A stretch of 64,000 nt of DNA, taken from NCBI GenBank assembly GCA_963695435.1, contig OY968788.1, forward strand, positions 349,456 to 413,455, written 5' to 3'. The notes under the pieces were generated by a model. It searched no databases. It saw only the letters and a list, made by a program, of their open reading frames with translations, and was not told where the DNA came from. Shown here piece by piece: positions 4,913-60,172 of the stretch (position 1 is the first letter of the stretch; every line of letters starts with the position of its first letter). The position numbers and the translations under genes were made by a program. The stretch comes from an uncultured bacterium. GTDB lineage: Bacteria; Patescibacteriota; Kazan-3B-28.

Positions 4913-5965
4913 TTATTTGTCGAAAAGAGCAAGTTGGGGAGGTCTTCCGCGGGGTCCACGAATTTGTAGTTTTCCGAGCCGATAGAGATTGGCCGATGGA
5001 ACCAACCAGCGACAAGTCCCTTCAATCGGACACTGACTACAGGTGTTGAGATAGTTCTCAATGTTCTGCTTTGTCCAACTAATTTCTTTGGGGACTACTG
5101 TAATCACCCGAGAATCTTCATCCCTAGGGACGATACTCTTGTTACCCGGGTGGCATCGACAGGCGATGCTCGACAAGAACCATGTCGCATCACAGAGTTC
5201 GGTTGGATCAACCTTCCGCTCTCGACAGTAGCGTTGAGTCAGTTCCCTAGCAGCAGCGAACATCTTCTCCGTTCGGAAGTTATAGTTGTCCGGTGCGTTA
5301 GACGCGGTGATCAACCCATTTGCGATAATAATCCTCATCGCATGAAAGTCGATCGGAATCGGCATCGATATAGGAGCTACCAACTTTGCCCTCACGAGAT
5401 AGAAGGCTAACATACTTACCATCTTCTCTCGGAACCCACGGAAACCATGGGGATATTCTGGGTTGAATTCCCCTGCTGGTTGACAGATGAGACGCTTGCA
5501 GAGCGTTTCATAGTCAGCATCAGCAAAGAGTGCTCTCGTGTCACCACCCCAGAACTGATGCAGTTTGGTGAAGTTGTCGACCCATTGTCGGCAAGACTCC
5601 TCAATGTGGTTTAGCCGCCGCTTCAAGAGTTCTTCAGCCAGCAACGCCTTGGTTCGGCTAGGCTGGCGAGCGACCAACTCGGGATCGAAGAGCCTTGGCT
5701 GGTCGTCGTGAAGCTTTACCAAACTGTTAAACGCAGTGTAGCTTTGAATGCTACCCTTCATATAACAGCAAACTGCTAACGAGAAATTAGATTCTGCTTT
5801 CCCCCCAATTTTGAGAGTATGGGGCAGAGTATTACTGTCATAGACGGCAGTAGCGATACTGTAGGGATACGCGGGGCGGCGAAGAGCCGCGATTAGCGCA
5901 TCAAAGACTTGGTATGCCCGTTTCCAGTGGGTAACCAACTTAACTTCCCCGTTGCCGTTAGCCAC
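4913..5965 (-). CDS. hypothetical protein, elevated GC (~50%), C-terminal C-x2-C-x5-C cysteine cluster
   Basis: 353 aa ORF; AGGAGG sits 8 nt before second GTG (track start GTG abuts SD), so start probably 5965; composition differs from neighbours. Confidence 0.5.
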   Translation of the reverse strand: MANGNGEVKLVTHWKRAYQVFDALIAALRRPAYPYSIATAVYDSNTLPHTLKIGGKAESNFSLAVCCYMKGSIQSYTAFNSLVKLHDDQPRLFDPELVARQPSRTKALLAEELLKRRLNHIEESCRQWVDNFTKLHQFWGGDTRALFADADYETLCKRLICQPAGEFNPEYPHGFRGFREKMVSMLAFYLVRAKLVAPISMPIPIDFHAMRIIIANGLITASNAPDNYNFRTEKMFAAARELTQRYCRERKVDPTELCDATWFLSSIACRCHPGNKSIVPRDEDSRVITVVPKEISWTKQNIENYLNTCSQCPIEGTCRWLVPSANLYRLGKLQIRGPRGRPPQLALFDK

Positions 5966-29320: not shown

Positions 29321-29701
29321 CTACATTTTTACGTCGATGCTGACACCGGCCGGCAGGCTCAAGTTAGTGAGCGCGTCGATAGTCTTTGGGGTCGGATCAA
29401 CAATTTCAATCAACCGGCGATGGATTCTCATCTCAAACTGGTCGCGAGAATCTTTGTGAACAAAAGTAGATTTCAATACAGTATAGATTTTTTTATCGGT
29501 AGGCAGGGGAATTGGTCCCAAGACGACTGCACCAGTCCGTTCTGCGGTTTCGATAATCAGTCTGGCTGAACGATCAAGAATCCGATGATCATAGGCTTTG
29601 AGACGAATGCGAATTCGTTGCTTATCACTGCGTTGCTCGGATTGCTTCGCGCTTTCCGCCTTGTCTTTTTTCAAACCTGATTGTGTAGGAGCTTTGGCCA
29701 T
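29321..29701 (-). CDS. rpsJ: 30S ribosomal protein S10 with ~25 aa Lys-rich N-terminal extension
   Basis: [12 protein letters not shown]... Confidence 0.9.
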
Positions 29702-29766: not shown

Positions 29767-30954
29767 TTACTTATCAATCTTGGCAACAACACCTGAAGCA
29801 ACTGTTCTGCCGCCTTCACGAATGGCGAAACGCAAACCTTCGTCCATAGCGATTGGGGCAATCAGTACAACTTTTACTTTGGCTGTGTCACCCGGCATTA
29901 CGATTTCAGTCCCTTCACCCAAGATTACTTCACCAGTCACATCCGTGGTGCGGAAGTAGAACTGTGGTTTGTAACCTTTGGAGAATGGGGTGTGGCGTCC
30001 GCCTTCTTCTTTGCTCAAGACATAAATCTCGGCTTCGAATTCGGTGTGCGGAGTAATGCTTCCCGGCTTGGCGATAACTTGACCGCGTTCAATTTGTTCG
30101 CGCTCAACACCGCGCAAGAGCAAACCAACATTGTCACCGGCCTGACCTTGGTCCAGCAATTTGCGGAACATTTCCACGCCGGTCACAATTGATTTCTGGG
30201 TTGCCTTGATACCAATAATTTCAATTTCTTCGTTGATTTTAATAACACCCTGCTCAACACGGCCAGTAGCAACTGTACCGCGTCCCTTGATGGAGAAAAC
30301 ATCTTCAACAGGCATCAAGAAAGGTTTATCAAGGGCGCGAACTGGATCAGGAATGTAAGTGTCCAAAGCATTGACCAAATCCATAATTGGTTTGGCAGCC
30401 GCTTCGTCGGTTGGGTTCTCCAACGCTTTCAAAGCTGACCCGCGAATGATTGGGACTTCATCACCTGGGTAACCTTGCTTGGTTAACAAGTCGCGAATTT
30501 CCTGTTCGACGAGGTCAATAAGCTCTGGGTCGTCCACCATATCGGTCTTGTTCAAGAAAACAATAATTTGAGGCACACCAACCTGATGAGCCAAAAGAAT
30601 GTGCTCACGAGTTTGTGGCATTGGACCGTCAGTAGCGGCAACTACCAAAATGGCAGCGTCCATCTGGGCAGCACCAGTAATCATGTTCTTTACGTAGTCA
30701 GCGTGGCCCGGACAGTCAACGTGGGCGTAGTGACGCTTTTCTGTTTCATATTCTTGGTGAGATGTTGCAATAGTAATACCACGCGCCTTTTCTTCAGGAG
30801 CGTTATCAATTTCATCAAACTTTCTGGCAGTAGCCAAACCTTTGCTGGCCAACACTTGAGTGATAGCCGCAGTTAGGGTGGTTTTACCATGGTCGACGTG
30901 ACCAATTGTACCGACGTTGACGTGAACCTTGTCTCTCTTGAATGTTTCAGCCAT
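29767..30954 (-). CDS. tuf: elongation factor Tu
   Basis: [18 protein letters not shown]. Confidence 0.97.
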
Positions 30955-31080
30955 AAATCCCTCTCAAAAACTTCTTATAGATTAGTATAGGTGTAAAAAA
31001 GATACTTTTAGAAAATACCTAAATTTGGAGAATAAAGCAAGGGTTTTTTCTGGGAAAATCGCCCATAGGAGGGGCTTCAG

Positions 31081-31118
31081 ATATAAAAGTGGGGCGGCGG
31101 GTCTTCCCGCTGCCCCAC
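31081..31118 (-). terminator. strong intrinsic terminator GTGGGGCAGCGGGAAGACCCGCCGCCCCAC + UUUU after plsC-like gene
   Basis: read on minus strand. Confidence 0.7.
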
Positions 31119-31135
31119 AAAATGGGCTTCGCCGA

Positions 31136-31858
31136 TCAGTCATACCAGGCTCTCATATCCTTTTTACTTGGCTGGAGCTCTTCCGGCAACATGGCGCGTA
31201 TCCGCCATGCAAGTCTACGAACCTCTCTCTTGAGAACATCCCTGGGGATGGTTTCTCCTAGATTGGCTCTGTAGCTAATCCGATAAGGAGCCCCGAAGAC
31301 GATCCTGATTTGGGACGGCCGGGGAAACTTACAGCCCTTCGGCAGGGCTCGGTGACTTCCAACAATGACGGCTGGTACGATGTGGCACCCACTGATAATA
31401 GCTGCTTTGACCGCCCCCGATCTACACCGCTCCATTCGGGGAGTATCACTGCGCTTCCCTTCTGGGAACATCATGATGGTTTCCCCATTTTTGAGAAGAT
31501 CGAGGGTGTACTCGAAGGCTGCCTTGGGGCTGCTTCGATGAAGTGCAACGGCTCCCAGCCCGATAATTACCCAAGCGAGTAGTTTGCTCAAACAGCTCTT
31601 CCCTTGGAAGAGTTCTATTTTGGCAATAACCCTGACCCTTCTGGGTATAGATATCCCAACCAATGGCGGATCAAGGTAGCTAATATGATTAGCTACCACC
31701 AGTACGCCTCCAGATTTAGGGACTTGAGACAGCCCGACAATCCGAAGCCTAAACCAGATCACTGCGCACACCAACACGATGGTGCGGATGCTCCAGTGAA
31801 AGATTATTTGCCACACCGACATAGGTCGGTGTGTCGAGTGTTTGCCTGACGACAACAT
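31136..31858 (-). CDS. 1-acyl-sn-glycerol-3-phosphate acyltransferase family (PlsC-like), ~52% GC
   Basis: motif I VVANHISYLD (HxxxxD), motif III FPEGKRS. Confidence 0.75.
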   Translation of the reverse strand: MLSSGKHSTHRPMSVWQIIFHWSIRTIVLVCAVIWFRLRIVGLSQVPKSGGVLVVANHISYLDPPLVGISIPRRVRVIAKIELFQGKSCLSKLLAWVIIGLGAVALHRSSPKAAFEYTLDLLKNGETIMMFPEGKRSDTPRMERCRSGAVKAAIISGCHIVPAVIVGSHRALPKGCKFPRPSQIRIVFGAPYRISYRANLGETIPRDVLKREVRRLAWRIRAMLPEELQPSKKDMRAWYD

Positions 31859-31937
31859 TGTGGGGGTGCGCCTCCTTTTTGATTTGAAGTGCCCTATAAA
31901 AATACCACTCGATTATTAGAAATGCAATCCCAGAGTC

Positions 31938-31965
31938 TAAAAAGCAGTCCGAAGAATCGGACTGC
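31938..31965 (-). terminator. intrinsic terminator GCAGTCCGATTCTTCGGACTGC + U-run
   Basis: read on minus strand. Confidence 0.6.
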
Positions 31966-31992
31966 TTGAAGTTTTGAATATTTTGTGGTGTA
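31964..31992. repeat. 29-bp direct repeat copy 1 GCTTGAAGTTTTGAATATTTTGTGGTGTA
   Basis: 27/29 identical to 32978-33006. Confidence 0.8.
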
Positions 31993-32002
31993 GCTTGGGT
32001 AT

Positions 32003-32034
32003 AGAAAAGGGGTCGCGGATTGCTCCGCGACCCC
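32003..32034 (-). terminator. intrinsic terminator GGGGTCGCGGAGCAATCCGCGACCCC + UUUU after hypothetical gene
   Basis: perfect 11-bp stem. Confidence 0.7.
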
Positions 32035-32069
32035 TGTGTTGTAGGTAAGGTGCGCTTTGACTAGCTCCT

Positions 32070-32801
32070 CTAGTCGAGCGAATGAACACCCCTCTCTTCT
32101 CCTATGTTGGCATAGAGGGCAATGCGAATGCATCCCGCCATGTGGTGGCCCACCCTTTCGTCTAAATAAAATCTTTCCGAGATCCAGTGGCACTCAAATG
32201 AGAAAACAGTAGCTGGGTATGCTCTAGAGAGACTAAGTGCATATCTCCTATTTTCTTCGTCTCTGTAGATAGTACCCAAGAAGATTGTTGGTACATCTTC
32301 ATAACCGCTGTCTCTCGGGATGAATCTTTGGTCATGGAGCAGGCCCTGGAGTACATTAGCATTAGGAAACATCCGACCAGCCAGTGTTTTCTTGACTTCA
32401 TCGAGATTGAAACAGAATCCTGGTCGTTTTTGGTCGGGTGGATAGTACAAATCAATCTGAAACGGATTCCACTCCCACTTACCCATCGAGGTGTCGTGGC
32501 TCTCAATCCTACCCTTGATATGAAGCCTATCTACAGGGGCGGGAGCCGCACAGTCAATCACCAAACTCGAGCGCTTCTTGGTTCGTTTGGAGGGAAGCAT
32601 GGGTTTCAGTAATTTGGCGCAAACTGGTTCGAGGGGTTTGCCCTCACGAATAGCTTGCAGGATTGGCTTTGCTTGGACAAAGTATGTTGCGGTGTACTTA
32701 CCGTCACGGGTTCCTTTTGCGATAGCAAGTAGGGTGCCAATAACCCATTCCGCCCATTCTGATAGCGTAGCGGGGCTAACCGCTTTCTTTTTCCTGAACA
32801 T
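32070..32801 (-). CDS. hypothetical protein (243 aa), ~50% GC, no recognisable motifs
   Basis: long ORF flanked by terminators and the 29-bp direct repeats. Confidence 0.5.
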   Translation of the reverse strand: MFRKKKAVSPATLSEWAEWVIGTLLAIAKGTRDGKYTATYFVQAKPILQAIREGKPLEPVCAKLLKPMLPSKRTKKRSSLVIDCAAPAPVDRLHIKGRIESHDTSMGKWEWNPFQIDLYYPPDQKRPGFCFNLDEVKKTLAGRMFPNANVLQGLLHDQRFIPRDSGYEDVPTIFLGTIYRDEENRRYALSLSRAYPATVFSFECHWISERFYLDERVGHHMAGCIRIALYANIGEERGVHSLD

Positions 32802-32951
32802 AGAACCTCCTTCTGCGGGACTAGCGCAGCCAACCTCGGTTACTCTCCAAAAGGGTAGAGTGTCTAGTTGGTAAAAAACAGAGATTTCGCACTTTCAAAC
32901 TACTGTTGATTAGGTTATCTGTCAAATAAAATTGCTCTCACATTGATTTTT

Positions 32952-32975
32952 CAAAAACACCCGCCTTTGAAGCGG
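32952..32975 (-). terminator. terminator-like hairpin CCGCTTCAAAGGCGG + GUGUUUUUG after fusA
   Basis: 6-bp stem incl. one GU. Confidence 0.4.
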
Positions 32976-32977
32976 AT

Positions 32978-33006
32978 GCTTGAAATTTTGAATATTTTGT
33001 GGCGTA
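32978..33006. repeat. 29-bp direct repeat copy 2 GCTTGAAATTTTGAATATTTTGTGGCGTA, immediately after fusA stop
   Basis: see copy 1. Confidence 0.8.
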
Positions 33007-33007
33007 A

Positions 33008-35080
33008 TTAGCCTTTTTTGGCGACCAGCTCGGCCTGAATGTTGGCAGGCACCTTCTCATAGTGGTCGAATTCCATTGTAGAGGAGGCACGGCCTTGGGA
33101 CATCGAGCGGAGGTTGGTGGCATAGCCGAACATTTCGGCCAACGGCACCAGTGCCCGAATCACCTTGGCATTAGCTCTATCCGTCATTCCTTCAATGCGC
33201 CCGCGCTTGGAGTTCAAATCTCCCATCACATCACCAGCATATTCTTCAGGGGTGACCGCTTCTACTTTCATAATAGGTTCCAACACAACGGGATTTCCTT
33301 TGCGCACACCTTCCTGCAAACACATACTCCCTGCGATTTGAAACGCCATTTCGTTGGAGTCAACTTCATGATACGAACCGTCAATCAAAGTGGCTTTGAT
33401 ATCTACAACAGGATAACCGGCGATAACACCGCGAGTAAGCGAAGATTCCACACCTTTTTGAACTGCGGGAATATATTCACGAGGAATAACACCACCAACG
33501 ATTTTATTAACAAATTCAAATCCACCAGTCTCAAGAGGCTCAAACTTGATAACCACATGTCCGTATTGTCCGCGACCACCGGTTTGTTTGATGTATTTCG
33601 TTTCGTTGACTGCTTCTTGCGTAATGGTTTCGCGATAAGCCACCTGCGGTTTACCGATGTTGGCTTCAACTTTGAACTCGCGTTTCATGCGGTCAACAAT
33701 AATATCCAAATGAAGCTCACCCATTCCTTCAATAATTGTTTGGCCGGAATCAGTATCGGTGTGCACACGGAAGGTCGGATCTTCTTCGGCTAATTTACCA
33801 AGAGCAATGGCCATTTTTTCTTGGTCAGCTTTTGATTTTGGTTCAACCGCAATAGAAATAACAGGCTCGGGGAAAGTAATCGATTCCAAAATAATCGGCT
33901 TGTCTCCATCACAAAGGGTGTCACCAGTGGTCACTTCTTTCAGCCCCACCATAGCGCCGATTTCACCTGCAAAAATTTCATCCACTTCTTCGCGGTGATT
34001 ACTGTGCATCCGCAAAATTCGGCTAACTCTTTCTTTTGTTCCTTTTGTAGCATTAGTCACATACGAACCAGATTTCAATGTTCCTGAATAAACACGGAAA
34101 TAAATAAGTTTTCCGACAAACGGGTCAGTGGCAATTTTGAAAGCTAGCGAAGAAAATGGTTCAGAGTCACTGGCTTCGCGAATAATTTCTTCACCGGTTT
34201 TTGGATCTAATCCTTTAACCGGAGGAATATCCAATGGATTCGGAAGATAATCAACAACCGCGTCCAAAAGTTTTTGAACACCTTTATTTTTCAAAGCGGA
34301 ACCGCACATTACCGGCACAAATTTGCCGGCAATAACAGCTGCTCGCATTGCTTTTTTTAATTCATCATTGGTAATAGCTTGGTCTGCCAAAAACCGCTCC
34401 ATTAAAGCGTCTTCGGTTTCAACAATTTTTTCCAGCATTTTGTGTCGATATTCTTTTACCAATTCTTTCATATCGTCTGGAATATCTGTTTCTAAAACAT
34501 CTTTACCTAAATCATCTTGATAAAAATAAGCTTTTTCGGTAATCAAATCGACTAACCCTTTGTAAGTTTCAGCGGCACCAATAGGAAGCTGAATTGGAAC
34601 GGCATTAGCGCCTAATCTATCCAAAATAGTTTTGTAGCAAAAATAAAAGTCCGCGCCCATTCGATCCATCTTGTTCACAAAACAGATGCGTGGGACGTGG
34701 TACTTGTCCGCCTGACGCCAAACAGTCTCGGATTGTGGTTCCACACCCGCGACACCGTCAAACACCACTACACCGCCGTCTAGTACGCGGAGACTGCGTT
34801 CTACTTCAACTGTGAAGTCAACGTGTCCGGGGGTGTCGATAATGTTGATGCGGGAATCGTTCCAGAAACAGGTGGTAGCGGCGGAAGTAATTGTAATTCC
34901 GCGTTCCTGTTCCTGTTCCATCCAGTCCATAACCGCCTCGCCTTCATGAACTTCACCAATCTTGTAAGTCTTTCCAGTATAAAAAAGAACTCGTTCTGTA
35001 ACGGTAGTTTTTCCGGCATCAATATGAGCAATAATGCCGATGTTTCTGGTTTGAGCTAGTGAATATTGTCTTTCTGACAT
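33008..35080 (-). CDS. fusA: elongation factor G
   Basis: 690 aa, [17 protein letters not shown]. Confidence 0.97.
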
Positions 35081-46081: not shown

Positions 46082-46165
46082 TGGTGGGCGGGGTGGGATT
46101 CGAACCCACAAGCCTTGCGGCAAAGGATTTTAAGTCCTTCGTGTATACCGTTCCACCACCCGCCC
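46082..46165 (-). tRNA. tRNA-Leu (anticodon TAA), class II long variable arm, CCA encoded
   Basis: hand-folded; anticodon loop CTTAAAA. Confidence 0.85.
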
Positions 46166-46168
46166 AAT

Positions 46169-46255
46169 TGGTGGGCACGAGAGGAGTTGAACCTCCACGG
46201 GATTGCTCCCACAGCGACCTGAACGCTGCGCGTATGCCAGTTCCGCCACGTGCCC
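46169..46255 (-). tRNA. tRNA-Leu (anticodon CAG), CCA encoded
   Basis: anticodon stem CAGCG/CGCTG, loop TTCAGGT. Confidence 0.85.
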
Positions 46256-46271
46256 ACACCGATTTTTAAAA

Positions 46272-46345
46272 TGGAGACCTGGAGGAGAGTCGAACTCCTG
46301 TACGGGGTTTTGCAGACCCCTGCCTAACCGCTCGGCCACCAGGCC
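46272..46345 (-). tRNA. tRNA-Cys (anticodon GCA), CCA encoded
   Basis: loop CTGCAAA; acceptor has one GU. Confidence 0.8.
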
Positions 46346-46408
46346 ATCGTCAGAATGGACTCGACCTTACGCTAACACCTTCGACAGGCTCAGGGTTGCT
46401 TTTAGTCT

Positions 46409-46490
46409 CGTCATTCTTCCTCTCAAAATCACAAACACTCGCTTCGCTCCTTGGTTTGTGATTTTGTGTTTGGGTTTTCAATCTCCGTTT
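46409..46490. repeat. Z-element copy 1: AAAATCACAAAC-N17-GTTTGTGATTTT hairpin module upstream of tRNA cluster 1 / downstream of dCMP deaminase
   Basis: ~90% identical over ~55 nt to 47515-47570. Confidence 0.6.
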
Positions 46491-46517
46491 TGTTATTTGT
46501 TATTTGGTTATTGGTTA

Positions 46518-47006
46518 TTACGGTGTAGCCGTTGTGGGGTACTCTTTTACTTTATCATCAAGAATTTCAAATTTAATACCCGCTTCTTCAAATATTCGCC
46601 GACTTTCAGCGCTTGCCTGATAATCCTGCCGTACCACTACCCGTACAATTCCACTGTTGATAATCATCTTGGCACAGGCATAACATGGCGTCATTGTGCA
46701 ATATAATGTACCGCCGTCAATAGAGATGCCAAATCGTGCAGCTTGGCAAATTGCATTTTGTTCGGCATGAGAAGTCCGAACACAATGCTTAGTTATACGA
46801 CCATCTTCATGAACAGTATCCTTGAATTCGTGACCTACTTCATCACAGTGTGGCAATCCTATTGGTGAACCAACATAACCAGTAGAAAGAATCCGTTTAT
46901 CTTTCGTAATAACTGCGCCGCTTTTTCCGCGATCACAAGTAGCACGGTTGGCTACCGCTTCACAAATTTGAAAAAAATATTCATCCCAGCTCAGTCGCTC
47001 GTTCAT
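46518..47006 (-). CDS. dCMP (cytidine/deoxycytidylate) deaminase family, zinc-binding
   Basis: HAEQNAI and PCYACAKMI motifs; start moved to second ATG (AGGAGG 7 nt upstream; perfect TATAAT overlaps first ATG). Confidence 0.75.
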   Translation of the reverse strand: MNERLSWDEYFFQICEAVANRATCDRGKSGAVITKDKRILSTGYVGSPIGLPHCDEVGHEFKDTVHEDGRITKHCVRTSHAEQNAICQAARFGISIDGGTLYCTMTPCYACAKMIINSGIVRVVVRQDYQASAESRRIFEEAGIKFEILDDKVKEYPTTATP

Positions 47007-47056
47007 CTGTGTCCTCCTGCTAATCATTATATCAGGCAGCTTGATTCTCTCTCGCC

Positions 47057-47095
47057 CAAAACAAAAAACCGAGCATTGCTCGATTTTCTGTTTTC
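47057..47095. terminator. bidirectional terminator hairpin CGAGCATTGCTCG flanked by A-run and T-run, after tRNA-Gly
   Basis: read directly. Confidence 0.55.
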
Positions 47096-47170
47096 TGGAG
47101 CGGGTGAGGAGAGTCGAACTCCCGTCTCTACCTTGGCAAGGTAATGTAATAGCCGTTATACGACACCCGC
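47096..47170 (-). tRNA. tRNA-Gly (anticodon GCC), CCA encoded
   Basis: loop TTGCCAA. Confidence 0.8.
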
Positions 47171-47217
47171 ACTTTTAATTTTCTGGATTGCCATGAAGCG
47201 TGCTTTGCACTGCTTCA

Positions 47218-47292
47218 TGGTGCCGAGAGACAGAATCGAACTGTCGACACCACGCTCTTCAGGCGCGTGCTCTACCACTGAGCTACCTCGGC
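47218..47292 (-). tRNA. tRNA-Phe (anticodon GAA), CCA encoded
   Basis: loop CTGAAGA. Confidence 0.85.
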
Positions 47293-47323
47293 ATAACAAT
47301 ACTAATATTATCAATTTTTTCAA

Positions 47324-47400
47324 TGGTGGATCCAAGAGGGATCGAACCTCTGACCTTTCGGATGTAAACCGAACGCTCTAACCAGCTGAGCTATGGATCC
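47324..47400 (-). tRNA. tRNA-Val (anticodon TAC), CCA encoded
   Basis: loop TTTACAT. Confidence 0.8.
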
Positions 47401-47403
47401 AGT

Positions 47404-47488
47404 TGGTGGGCGAGAGAGGACTCGAACCTCCACGGGTTGCCCCACAGCGCCCTTAACGCTGCGTGTATACCAGTTTCACCACTCGCCC
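47404..47488 (-). tRNA. tRNA-Leu with anticodon AAG (A34), paralog of the Leu-CAG gene
   Basis: anticodon stem CAGCG/CGCTG identical to Leu-CAG gene, loop TTAAGGG instead of TTCAGGT. Confidence 0.7.
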
Positions 47489-59725: not shown

Positions 59726-60168
59726 CTCTTTGCAAGTGTGTAACTACCCTGTACCGACGGTATAGGGAGGAAAGTCCGGACACCATTTGGGATTTGGAAA
59801 GTCGCTAACGGCGACCAGGGGCAACCCTAGGGAAAGTGCCACAGAGACTATACTAGTTCTGCTGTAAAGCAGAATGAAAGGTGAAAAGTTGCGGGATGTG
59901 TTGTGTAAAGAATTAGGCCAAACCTAATGATTTGCGCCTCTTGCCACTCGCAAGGTTCCACCGCGAGGTGGAAATTCTGGTAAACCCTTTCCGGTGCAAG
60001 TTGGACTGGACTGAATATGCTAACAACATAAATTCCAATTGAGTATATTCAGACCCCAACGCTTGAGTTCTGGAGCAATCCAGAACCTAGATAGATGGTT
60101 ACTCTACCCGCGTACATTCGCAAGACTGTACAGGGTGAGACAGAATCCGGCTTATAGCTTGCAAAGAG
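59726..60168 (+). ncRNA. rnpB: RNase P RNA (bacterial type A-like), ~443 nt
   Basis: GGGAGGAAAGTCCGGAC (P4 5' strand), ACAGAATCCGGCTTATAG (P4 3' strand), GGTAAACCC; P1 pairing CTCTTTGCAAG / CTTGCAAAGAG. Confidence 0.85.
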
Positions 60169-60172
60169 TTTT

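Follow-up and report, generated by a model that had tools for sequence, protein, structure and literature searches.

Here we analyzed the DNA between fusA and tuf in a 64-kb stretch of bacterial chromosome, referred to throughout as the window. The two genes found there probably reflect ordinary gene gain at two different times: an old placement of plsC that is shared by a clade, and a recent insertion of a single gene in this lineage.

Gene order and composition between fusA and tuf

The E. coli str operon runs rpsL-rpsG-fusA-tufA, and E. coli tuf also has an independent promoter. In the window, rpsL-rpsG-fusA are likewise contiguous (36105–33008, minus strand), with fusA (EF-G, 690 aa; 33008–35080) ending the block, and tuf (EF-Tu, 395 aa; 29767–30954) follows on the same strand with rpsJ and the S10 operon downstream. 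Unlike in E. coli, tuf does not lie directly downstream of fusA. The two are separated by 2,053 bp, in agreement with the roughly 2 kb given in the initial annotation, and this interval contains a further two genes along with four hairpins that resemble terminators, all genes being on the minus strand. The first open reading frame after fusA encodes a 243-aa protein (32070–32801), and the second, plsC, encodes a 240-aa acyltransferase of Pfam family PF01553 (31136–31858).

Two independent Logan assemblies (ERR15459710 and ERR12035938) have the same gene order and spacing as the NCBI/ENA genome and encode an identical 243-aa protein. Direct repeats can mislead assemblers, and one such repeat is present here, as described below. 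Against an assembly chimera at this repeat stand the agreement of the two assemblies and the shortness of the repeat, which spans 30 nt, differs at 2 positions, and does not reach the length of typical final k-mers; the chance of such an artifact is negligible.

The host genome looks Patescibacteria/CPR-like, and of the small-genome kind, because its contig measures about 560 kb and the uL30 gene (rpmD) is absent between rpsE (21489–20899) and rplO (20885–20442), which are separated by a gap of 13 bp. The lack of this gene at this position is a CPR signature. In a search of genome contigs, the fusA product was 61–67% identical to the EF-G of the 80 genomes listed, and several of the top matches among those listed were CPR MAGs (66–67% identity).

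The interval has a GC content of 48.0%; the window as a whole is at 45.3%, and tuf is also at 48.0%. The initial annotation had placed both intervening genes at about 50–52% GC. This is correct for plsC, which at 52.0% ranks 47 of 48 ORFs and has the highest GC3 in the window, but not for the 243-aa gene, which is at 48.4% (z = 0.9, rank 40 of 48) and is compositionally native to the window.

Position of plsC among relatives and predicted transcription units

The closest relatives were found through PlsC homologues and comprise five short contigs from about four distinct lineages, with L081 and L123 near-identical; their samples are ERZ27247363, SRR22387796, SRR12262945, SRR33696295, and JGI Ga0265297. 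On L081, L082, and L123, fusA is followed by a 130–145 nt spacer and then plsC (EF-G 88%, PlsC 68–70% identity). The more distant L084 has the order fusA, an NT5C-like gene on the opposite strand, plsC, and tuf (EF-G 83%, PlsC 41% identity). Four relative contigs therefore carry fusA-plsC (EF-G 83–88% identity), and plsC is followed by tuf on L082, L083, and L084. The 243-aa gene is present at this locus on 0 of the 5. Outside this group, plsC was beside fusA in 0 of the 80 other genomes listed, and none of 53 more distant PlsC loci adjoined fusA or tuf. In other genomes, other CPR included, tuf instead comes after fusA at a distance of mostly 60–780 bp, with no plsC in between; the majority of those that show tuf have a gap of about 60–250 bp. 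A few other genomes have a larger fusA-tuf gap, or no tuf within reach. From the gene orders compared, the position of plsC inside the str cluster is clade-specific, and within the fusA-tuf interval the 243-aa gene alone is specific to this lineage.

The protein product of plsC matches PF01553 with a score of 80 bits, where the cutoff is 23 (E-value 1.8e-22; profile positions 2–131 of 132), confirming the PlsC-like acyltransferase of the initial annotation. Like other LPLAT/AGPAT enzymes of this family, it contains an HX4D motif (H58-ISYL-D63), an FPEGxR motif (F131-PEGKR, residues 131–136), and an N-terminal membrane anchor, and both motifs are invariant in five clade orthologues. By sequence its membership in the LPLAT/AGPAT family is certain. 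It differs from these enzymes in its clade-specific place in the str cluster and in scoring below the NCBIfam TIGR00530 cutoff for 1-acyl-sn-glycerol-3-phosphate acyltransferase (80.1 against 102.95 bits), which does not support that specific assignment. PlsC has been reported from CPR genomes with no fatty-acid synthesis of their own (PMC7242380).

The whole 2-kb interval had been described as one higher-GC insertion, that is, a recent foreign island in which plsC and the 243-aa gene together split fusA from tuf. The 52% GC and top GC3 of plsC fit such an island, as does the fusA-tuf order of other genomes, which have no plsC there. However, the relatives share the fusA-plsC-tuf arrangement (fusA-plsC on four contigs and plsC-tuf on a fifth), with PlsC identity falling to 41%. 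Their plsC also exceeds fusA by 8–10 points of GC, which makes the excess characteristic of plsC itself rather than a sign of recent acquisition. In addition, the direct repeat brackets only the 243-aa gene, whose composition is ordinary. A single foreign island is thus very unlikely. The initial annotation had itself reasoned that a shared arrangement of the same composition in relatives would point to ancestry rather than acquisition. This applies to plsC, whose place at the fusA-tuf site and whose composition are, on these comparisons, ancestral to the clade, but not to the 243-aa gene, which the relatives lack.

Four hairpins with U-runs are predicted in the interval on the minus strand, in keeping with the four intrinsic terminators noted earlier. 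T1, the predicted fusA terminator (32952–32980; fold z = -2.8), has the stem GCAUCCGC/GCGGGUGU and resembles the fusA terminator of L081 and L123. T2 (32004–32035; z = -6.0) is the candidate terminator of the inserted 243-aa gene, with a 12-bp perfect stem and a folding energy of -31.7 kcal/mol. T3 (31937–31967; z = -4.2) follows the second repeat copy, and T4 (31083–31118; z = -4.3) is the putative plsC terminator, with a hairpin at the same position in relatives. Of the four, only T2 was listed by a strict terminator scan. All relatives have fusA terminator hairpins; T1 resembles the L081/L083 type and T3 the L082 type, and the ancestral fusA terminator may be either T1 or T3. Six fusA-terminator modules aligned too poorly for RNAalifold to reveal covariation, and the sole Rfam result was a sub-threshold BjrC68 match that coincides with T2.

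Promoter-like sites precede all three genes downstream of fusA, again on the minus strand. That of the inserted gene, TTGACA-N17-TAGTTT (32897–32925), is an in silico pattern match and was not listed by the strict scan. The plsC site, TTGCAT-N17-TATTTT (31899–31927), keeps its position in relatives as TTGATT-N17-TAnnTT, and the tuf site, TTGCTT-N17-TATTTT (31012–31040), lies within a promoter and 5'UTR block that shows almost no variation among clade members. We infer that these predicted promoters and terminators are functional. On that basis fusA, plsC, and tuf appear to be separate transcription units in the clade, as had been suggested earlier for fusA and tuf, and the four predicted terminators together with the conserved tuf promoter argue against fusA-tuf co-transcription.

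The repeat-bracketed insert

The 243-aa gene is bracketed by a direct repeat, originally described as 29 bp, which is real and spans 30 nt. Copy 1, TACGCCACAAAATATTCAAAATTTCAAGCA (32977–33006, minus strand), is A-rich and begins 2 nt past the fusA stop; copy 2, TACACCACAAAATATTCAAAACTTCAAGCA (31963–31992, minus strand), runs on into the ancestral spacer. The copies match at 28 of 30 positions (93%), with 0 such matches expected in shuffles. Further copies had been proposed as something to search for, and exactly two exist within the window, which covers 64 kb of a contig of at least 560 kb, even with 3 mismatches allowed. With one indel, blastn extends the repeat to 38–39 nt, but past 30 nt, where the hairpins lie, the similarity lacks significance, its score being reached by 247 of 2,000 shuffles.

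Comparison with the relatives places the repeat within their fusA-plsC spacer, where it corresponds to the A-rich stretch 5' of the fusA terminator. Copy 1 is the orthologue of this spacer's first 30 nt and aligns no further than the terminator, and copy 2 aligns with the entire spacer up to the plsC ATG. Deleting one repeat with the inter-repeat DNA (1,014 bp) leaves a spacer of 135 nt, collinear with the 130–145 nt of the relatives; the net gain of 1,014 bp thus consists of 984 bp of unique DNA and one repeat. Each copy matches the orthologous spacers at only 21–22 of 30 positions (70–73%), below the 28 of 30 between copies. Since the copies are closer to each other than to the orthologous spacers, the 30-nt duplication is, by this measure, young and post-dates the split from the relatives. 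The footprint of insertion or duplication proposed by the initial annotation therefore holds for the repeat-bracketed DNA, the 243-aa gene and its terminator, and is lineage-specific.

The same repeats could be read in the opposite direction, with the 243-aa gene ancestral and lost from the sampled relatives. Direct repeats of 30 nt are a substrate for precise deletion, and few relatives are in the sample. This reading is improbable in light of the 93% identity of the copies against 70–73% for orthologous spacers, which puts the duplication later than the split, and of the absence of the gene from five relative contigs (about four lineages), the distant L084 included. In addition, a word-indexed search of 5.8 billion protein clusters matched the 243-aa protein to itself only, with no orthologue. 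We infer that the event was a gain rather than a loss.

Rather than an insertion footprint, the repeat might also be a cis-element with a function of its own, serving as the A-tract arm of a bidirectional terminator or as a 3'UTR/sRNA seed; its two copies would then reflect reuse of a terminator module or similarity held by selection. Each copy does lie immediately 5' of a hairpin and U-run, the predicted fold pairs its UUCAAAA with the U-tract, and an A-rich segment is kept at this place in relatives. However, the copies match each other far better than orthologues do, the segment is missing from T2 and T4, and two copies are all that the 64 kb contains. Even a functional segment, once duplicated, marks the junctions of inserted DNA. 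A cis-element in place of a footprint is therefore quite unlikely.

How the gene entered is a matter of conjecture. The insert resembles both Campbell-type or att-mediated integrations and transposon insertions in being flanked by a direct target duplication, and the 30-nt repeat could be taken for the attachment core that flanks an integrase island. Unlike these elements, the insert carries no integrase, transposase, terminal inverted repeat, or tRNA target: its single ORF contains no recombinase or transposase domain in Pfam, NCBIfam, and other profile searches, no terminal inverted repeats were found at its ends, and no tRNA lies nearby. Moreover, a 30-nt duplication is far longer than is usual for transposons, and the element measures only about 1 kb. 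A single crossover (Campbell-type or att-like) or a staggered-break insertion at the 30-nt segment is the likeliest route; this is a conjecture because the searches found neither a recombinase or transposase nor inverted repeats at the ends and because members of the same protein family elsewhere have no flanking repeats.

The favored history, with two events, would then run as follows. In the ancestor of a narrow clade, a PlsC-type gene would have become placed between fusA and tuf. The classic str operon appears to be split in this clade: fusA stops at a terminator of its own, a promoter-like site and a terminator frame plsC, and the promoter and leader of tuf are strongly conserved. Later, in this lineage only, about 1.0 kb would have entered the fusA-plsC spacer, either just ahead of the fusA terminator module or inside it, and duplicated the A-rich 30 nt lying before the terminator. 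The insert would be moron-like and self-contained, its gene for a soluble protein of 243 aa being preceded by a promoter-like site and a GGAGG and followed by a strong terminator; it could therefore lie among highly expressed translation genes with no read-through into itself or into plsC.

The 243-aa protein and its family

A phage moron consists of a promoter, a single gene, and an intrinsic terminator inserted between two genes. The insert described here similarly has a promoter-like site, a GGAGG Shine-Dalgarno (32806–32810), one ORF, and the strong predicted terminator T2, all its own, between conserved genes, and relatives of the C-terminal domain of its protein occur in phage early regions. 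It differs in lying in a bacterial chromosome rather than a prophage, with no phage genes nearby, and in its flanking 30-nt duplication, which is not a defining moron trait. By sequence comparison, the region upstream of the gene (32813–32884, minus strand) shares 5'UTR elements with an otherwise unrelated gene, P0065 at locus L148. These are a 25-nt block (32860–32884), CCAACTAGACAC, and a hairpin, CUGCG-N7-CGCAG (32813–32829), just 5' of the Shine-Dalgarno.

The N-terminus of the 243-aa protein is a three-helix module (approximately residues 13–65) that is 55% identical to P0065 and shared with that protein only. The C-terminus is an alpha/beta domain (approximately residues 75–215) of an uncharacterized family, which we call A1. 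The AF2 model has a pLDDT of 79.9, with core blocks mostly above 90. The initial annotation had called the protein an orphan with no recognizable motif. Pfam, NCBIfam, PHROGs, and PADLOC indeed returned nothing for it or its relatives, but exhaustive phmmer found 68 matches at E ≤ 1e-3 (best 1.8e-13), of which 3, the query among them, were at E ≤ 1e-10. Similarity is significant over a domain of roughly 130 aa and includes the conserved core: P162, F174, G176, and T177 are invariant in the A1 alignment, and D83, H102, and N147 occur in at least 90% of sequences. The family consensus is IDCDAxP...GWxVExH...VLNANVLDYLL...IPExWK...FWGTIYRD. Within it the 243-aa protein has the domain and all four invariant residues (P, F, G, T) but differs in carrying the extra N-terminal module, is 21–33% identical to other members, and has other residues in place of the second IDCDA Asp and the FWGT Trp. 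On sequence grounds the protein belongs to a real family, if as a divergent member, and is no strict orphan. We also considered whether the conserved His and Asn might be HNH-like and rejected this, as their spacing is about 45 aa and structural support is absent.

Members of A1 are solitary chromosomal genes in varied housekeeping contexts of small-genome bacteria. A search of IMG/VR with the family gave three viral contigs, and a canonical member (hhalign E 1.8e-60) lies on a phage contig between Holliday-junction resolvase and NinB-like genes, the same contig also encoding RecT and DnaC-like genes, which places the family in a phage replication/recombination module. Searches of INPHARED (phage) and PLSDB (plasmid) with A1 members by tblastn gave no match, the family has no PDB (sequence-profile search) or BFVD counterpart, and a literature search on its motifs found no papers. 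This distribution suggests a horizontally mobile accessory gene. Elsewhere, A1 members have no consistent flanking repeats, and the duplication seen here is therefore not a trademark of the family.

A more far-reaching possibility is that A1 is a new self-inserting or phage-delivered single-gene cassette, or that the 30-nt-plus-hairpin module is a functional 3'UTR-derived RNA. We regard this as very doubtful. If true, the cassette would home to the A-rich segment before intrinsic terminators of highly expressed genes, about 30 nt would be duplicated upon its entry, and the separate insertion of a different gene in the L084 fusA-plsC spacer would mark a preferred landing site.

The two-step history does not overturn current understanding and is useful chiefly because it corrects the view of the 2 kb as a foreign island. 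The fusA-plsC-tuf order is a clade-specific synteny marker, and A1 is an unnamed protein family, covered by no current domain or structure library, that is common to small-genome bacteria and phages. The insertion itself would be a clean, datable case of a streamlined, host-dependent bacterium gaining an accessory gene inside a cluster that ranks among the most conserved in bacteria, and leaving that cluster undisturbed, with the new gene arriving insulated by its own predicted promoter and terminators.

Gene order and the acyltransferase between fusA and tuf

The str region lies on the minus strand throughout, in the order rpoB, rpoC, rpsL (36105-35677), rpsG (35674-35201), fusA (35080-33008), a 243-aa ORF (32801-32070), a 240-aa ORF (31858-31136), tuf (30954-29767), rpsJ and the S10/spc operons. 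The initial annotation placed about 2 kb between fusA and tuf, and the interval measures 2,053 bp. As called, the rpsJ product (29321-29701) begins with about 26 residues that most S10 homologues compared do not have. Most tblastn matches to it start near residue 25-30; these residues are either a lineage-specific extension or the result of a start codon placed too early. Downstream, rpsE (21489-20899) and rplO (20885-20442) are separated by a 13-bp gap with no uL30 (rpmD) gene between them, and uL30 absence is a classic signature of CPR/Patescibacteria. The window also contains seven clustered tRNA genes (three Leu, Cys, Gly, Phe and Val; 46082-47488) and a class A RNase P RNA (59728-60170, 210 bits), both unrelated to the fusA-tuf finding.

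Judged by its sequence, the 240-aa product is certainly a PlsC-type acyltransferase, as first proposed. It matches Pfam PF01553 (E 1.8e-22, 80 bits with a cutoff of 23) and contains the HX4D (H58-D63) and FPEGxR (131-136) motifs behind a hydrophobic N-terminal anchor. Its score does not reach the NCBIfam TIGR00530 cutoff, so the certainty covers the class and not the substrate. The fusA-tuf interval has 48.0% GC vs 45.3% for the window. The elevated GC first reported for both ORFs is confined to plsC (52.0%, rank 47 of 48 ORFs), and the 243-aa gene is unexceptional (48.4%, z = 0.9). In relatives, plsC GC is likewise 8-10 points above that of fusA, so the excess belongs to the gene and is no sign of recent transfer.

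Close homologues of the acyltransferase are 70, 68, 62 and 41% identical. In contigs L081, L082 and L123 (EF-G 88% identical), fusA is followed by a 130-145 nt spacer and plsC, with tuf coming after plsC in L082; L083 has the order spacer, plsC, tuf. In L084 (EF-G 83%, PlsC 41%), an NT5C-like gene in the opposite orientation stands between fusA and plsC, and tuf comes after plsC. The 243-aa gene is absent from all five. Since relatives have fusA-plsC and plsC-tuf without it, a single 2-kb foreign island is not tenable: synteny is in keeping with recent acquisition of the 243-aa gene but not of plsC, which is common to the clade with the same GC excess. Several CPR MAGs are among the best EF-G matches listed; together with the missing uL30 gene and a contig of about 560 kb, this makes the genome probably Patescibacteria/CPR. 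Across the 80 other genomes listed, several of them CPR MAGs, the fusA-tuf gap is mostly 60-250 bp in non-CPR genomes; it runs from 136 to 780 bp across the CPR loci examined, and a few loci have a larger gap or no tuf within reach. None of the 80 has plsC between fusA and tuf, and none of 53 more distant PlsC loci adjoins either gene. Shared by relatives and found in none of these other genomes, the placement reads as a derived yet old character of a narrow clade.

Predicted transcription units

The interval contains four minus-strand hairpins with U-runs, T1 (32980-32952), T2 (32035-32004), T3 (31967-31937) and T4 (31118-31083), all folding clearly better than shuffled sequence, which bears out the four terminators first noted. 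T2 is the strongest hairpin of the region (-31.7 kcal/mol). A sub-threshold Rfam match to the sRNA family BjrC68 at 32000-32050 (27 bits, gathering score 39) was rejected, the matched stretch being simply T2.

Separate termination of fusA and a tuf promoter of its own had also been proposed. A predicted fusA terminator is present here and in every relative, and plsC comes with a predicted terminator and with a promoter-like site whose position is conserved. Upstream of tuf, the roughly 90 nt that hold its promoter-like site and 5'UTR (30955-31045; AAAAACCCTTGCTTTA...GGTATTTTCTAAAAGTAT...) are almost invariant in L081-L084, including the more distant L084, beside a plsC 3' flank that diverges freely. 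The conserved 5'UTR may be a regulatory leader. The str cluster of this clade thus seems to have been split, with fusA, plsC and tuf each forming a unit of its own. PlsC is reportedly kept by CPR genomes lacking fatty-acid synthesis (PMC7242380), which makes it plausible that this conserved and, by prediction, independently expressed plsC encodes a lipid-salvage enzyme.

Probable insertion footprint around the 243-aa gene

The direct repeat, first described as 29 bp, is 30 nt long, with minus-strand copies after fusA (copy 1, 32977-33006) and before plsC (copy 2, 31963-31992) that are identical at 28/30 positions (chance expectation 0). No third copy with three or fewer mismatches occurs elsewhere in the 64-kb window. 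Copy 2 and all DNA downstream of it are collinear with the entire fusA-plsC spacer of the relatives; T3, a conserved block CTCTGGGATTG, a promoter-like TTGCAT-N17-TATTTT site and the ribosome-binding region GGAGGCGCACCCC all fall within this match. Copy 1 aligns to only the first part of the spacer, which comprises the stop codon, the 30-nt segment and the terminator. Removal of one repeat plus the inter-repeat DNA (1,014 bp) leaves a spacer of 135 nt vs 130-145 nt in relatives. Throughout the clade an A-rich 30-nt segment stands just before the fusA terminator, and the collinearity and 135-nt remainder identify the repeat as this segment, which was probably duplicated when the new DNA, about 984 bp, entered. 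T1 is similar to the hairpin of L081/L083 and T3 to that of L082; similarity past the 30 nt is not significant.

Identity is 93% between the two copies vs 70-73% between the copies and the orthologous segments, indicating a duplication younger than the split from the sampled relatives. This favours recent gain of the single 243-aa gene rather than its loss in relatives. An assembly artefact was rejected, since two independent Logan assemblies have the same arrangement and an identical 243-aa protein. The insertion footprint suggested at first therefore applies to the repeat-bracketed unit and not to the whole interval. The insert contains no recombinase, transposase or inverted repeat, and the mechanism is an inference from the junctions: their target-insert-target layout would be expected if a circular intermediate had recombined with the 30-nt segment by a single crossover, and likewise if a long staggered break had been filled in.

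In L084, a different gene, the NT5C-like one named above (875-1480; 201 aa, weak NT5C match, opposite strand), lies within the fusA-plsC spacer, and no flanking repeat was detected around it. Gene gain seems to be tolerated in this spacer, with an independent insertion in L084 too, and the new cassette would have exploited it.

The 243-aa gene and family A1

With a promoter-like site (TTGACA-N17-TAGTTT, 32925-32897, minus strand) and a GGAGG Shine-Dalgarno sequence upstream and T2 downstream, the insert is predicted to be an autonomous promoter-gene-terminator unit, which the putatively duplicated fusA terminator module would insulate on both sides. The gene is modular, as its N-terminal ~60 aa (55% identity) and ~70 nt of 5'UTR are common to P0065, an otherwise different gene on a 418-kb contig (L148). 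The shared 5'UTR (32802-32884 vs L148 6038-6135) includes a 25-nt block, identical at 22/25 positions and containing CCAACTAGACAC, and a CUGCG-N7-CGCAG hairpin directly before the Shine-Dalgarno sequence. A small cis-regulatory module may travel with the N-terminal domain.

The 243-aa protein is soluble (maximum hydropathy 0.99). It was initially considered an orphan with no recognisable motif, and a word-indexed protein search found no relative, but an exhaustive phmmer search found 68 (best 1.8e-13). Their alignment has the consensus IDCDAxP..GWxVExH..VLNANVLDYLL..IPExWK..FWGTIYRD, with P162, F174, G176 and T177 invariant, and places the protein as a divergent member of an uncharacterised family, A1. 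The earlier view held insofar as Pfam, PHROGs, PADLOC, BFVD and the PDB, compared by sequence and by fold, contain nothing equivalent to the family. In the AlphaFold model, which is confident (pLDDT 79.9, mostly >90 in the core blocks), the protein has three helices at its N-terminus and an alpha/beta domain. Long members, including P0045, P0047 and P0049, carry 3-4 tandem copies of a ~130-aa domain, a pattern that points to a role in binding or scaffolding more than to catalysis.

In small-genome bacteria, family A1 genes stand alone, among housekeeping neighbours that differ from locus to locus. On phage contig L150 (IMG/VR UViG_3300009691_000002), a canonical member (4929-5450; hhalign E 1.8e-60) is flanked by Holliday-junction resolvase and NinB-like genes; a replication initiator, RecT and a DnaC-like loader are encoded on the same contig. 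No PHROGs model matched this phage member. Two further IMG/VR contigs, L149 and L151, are listed beside L150 for viral occurrence of the family. This solitary chromosomal and phage distribution is consistent with an accessory gene that moves horizontally. The fusA-tuf interval is an old, clade-wide placement of plsC joined by one recent, ordinary and well-footprinted gain of a single gene, not a 2-kb foreign island.
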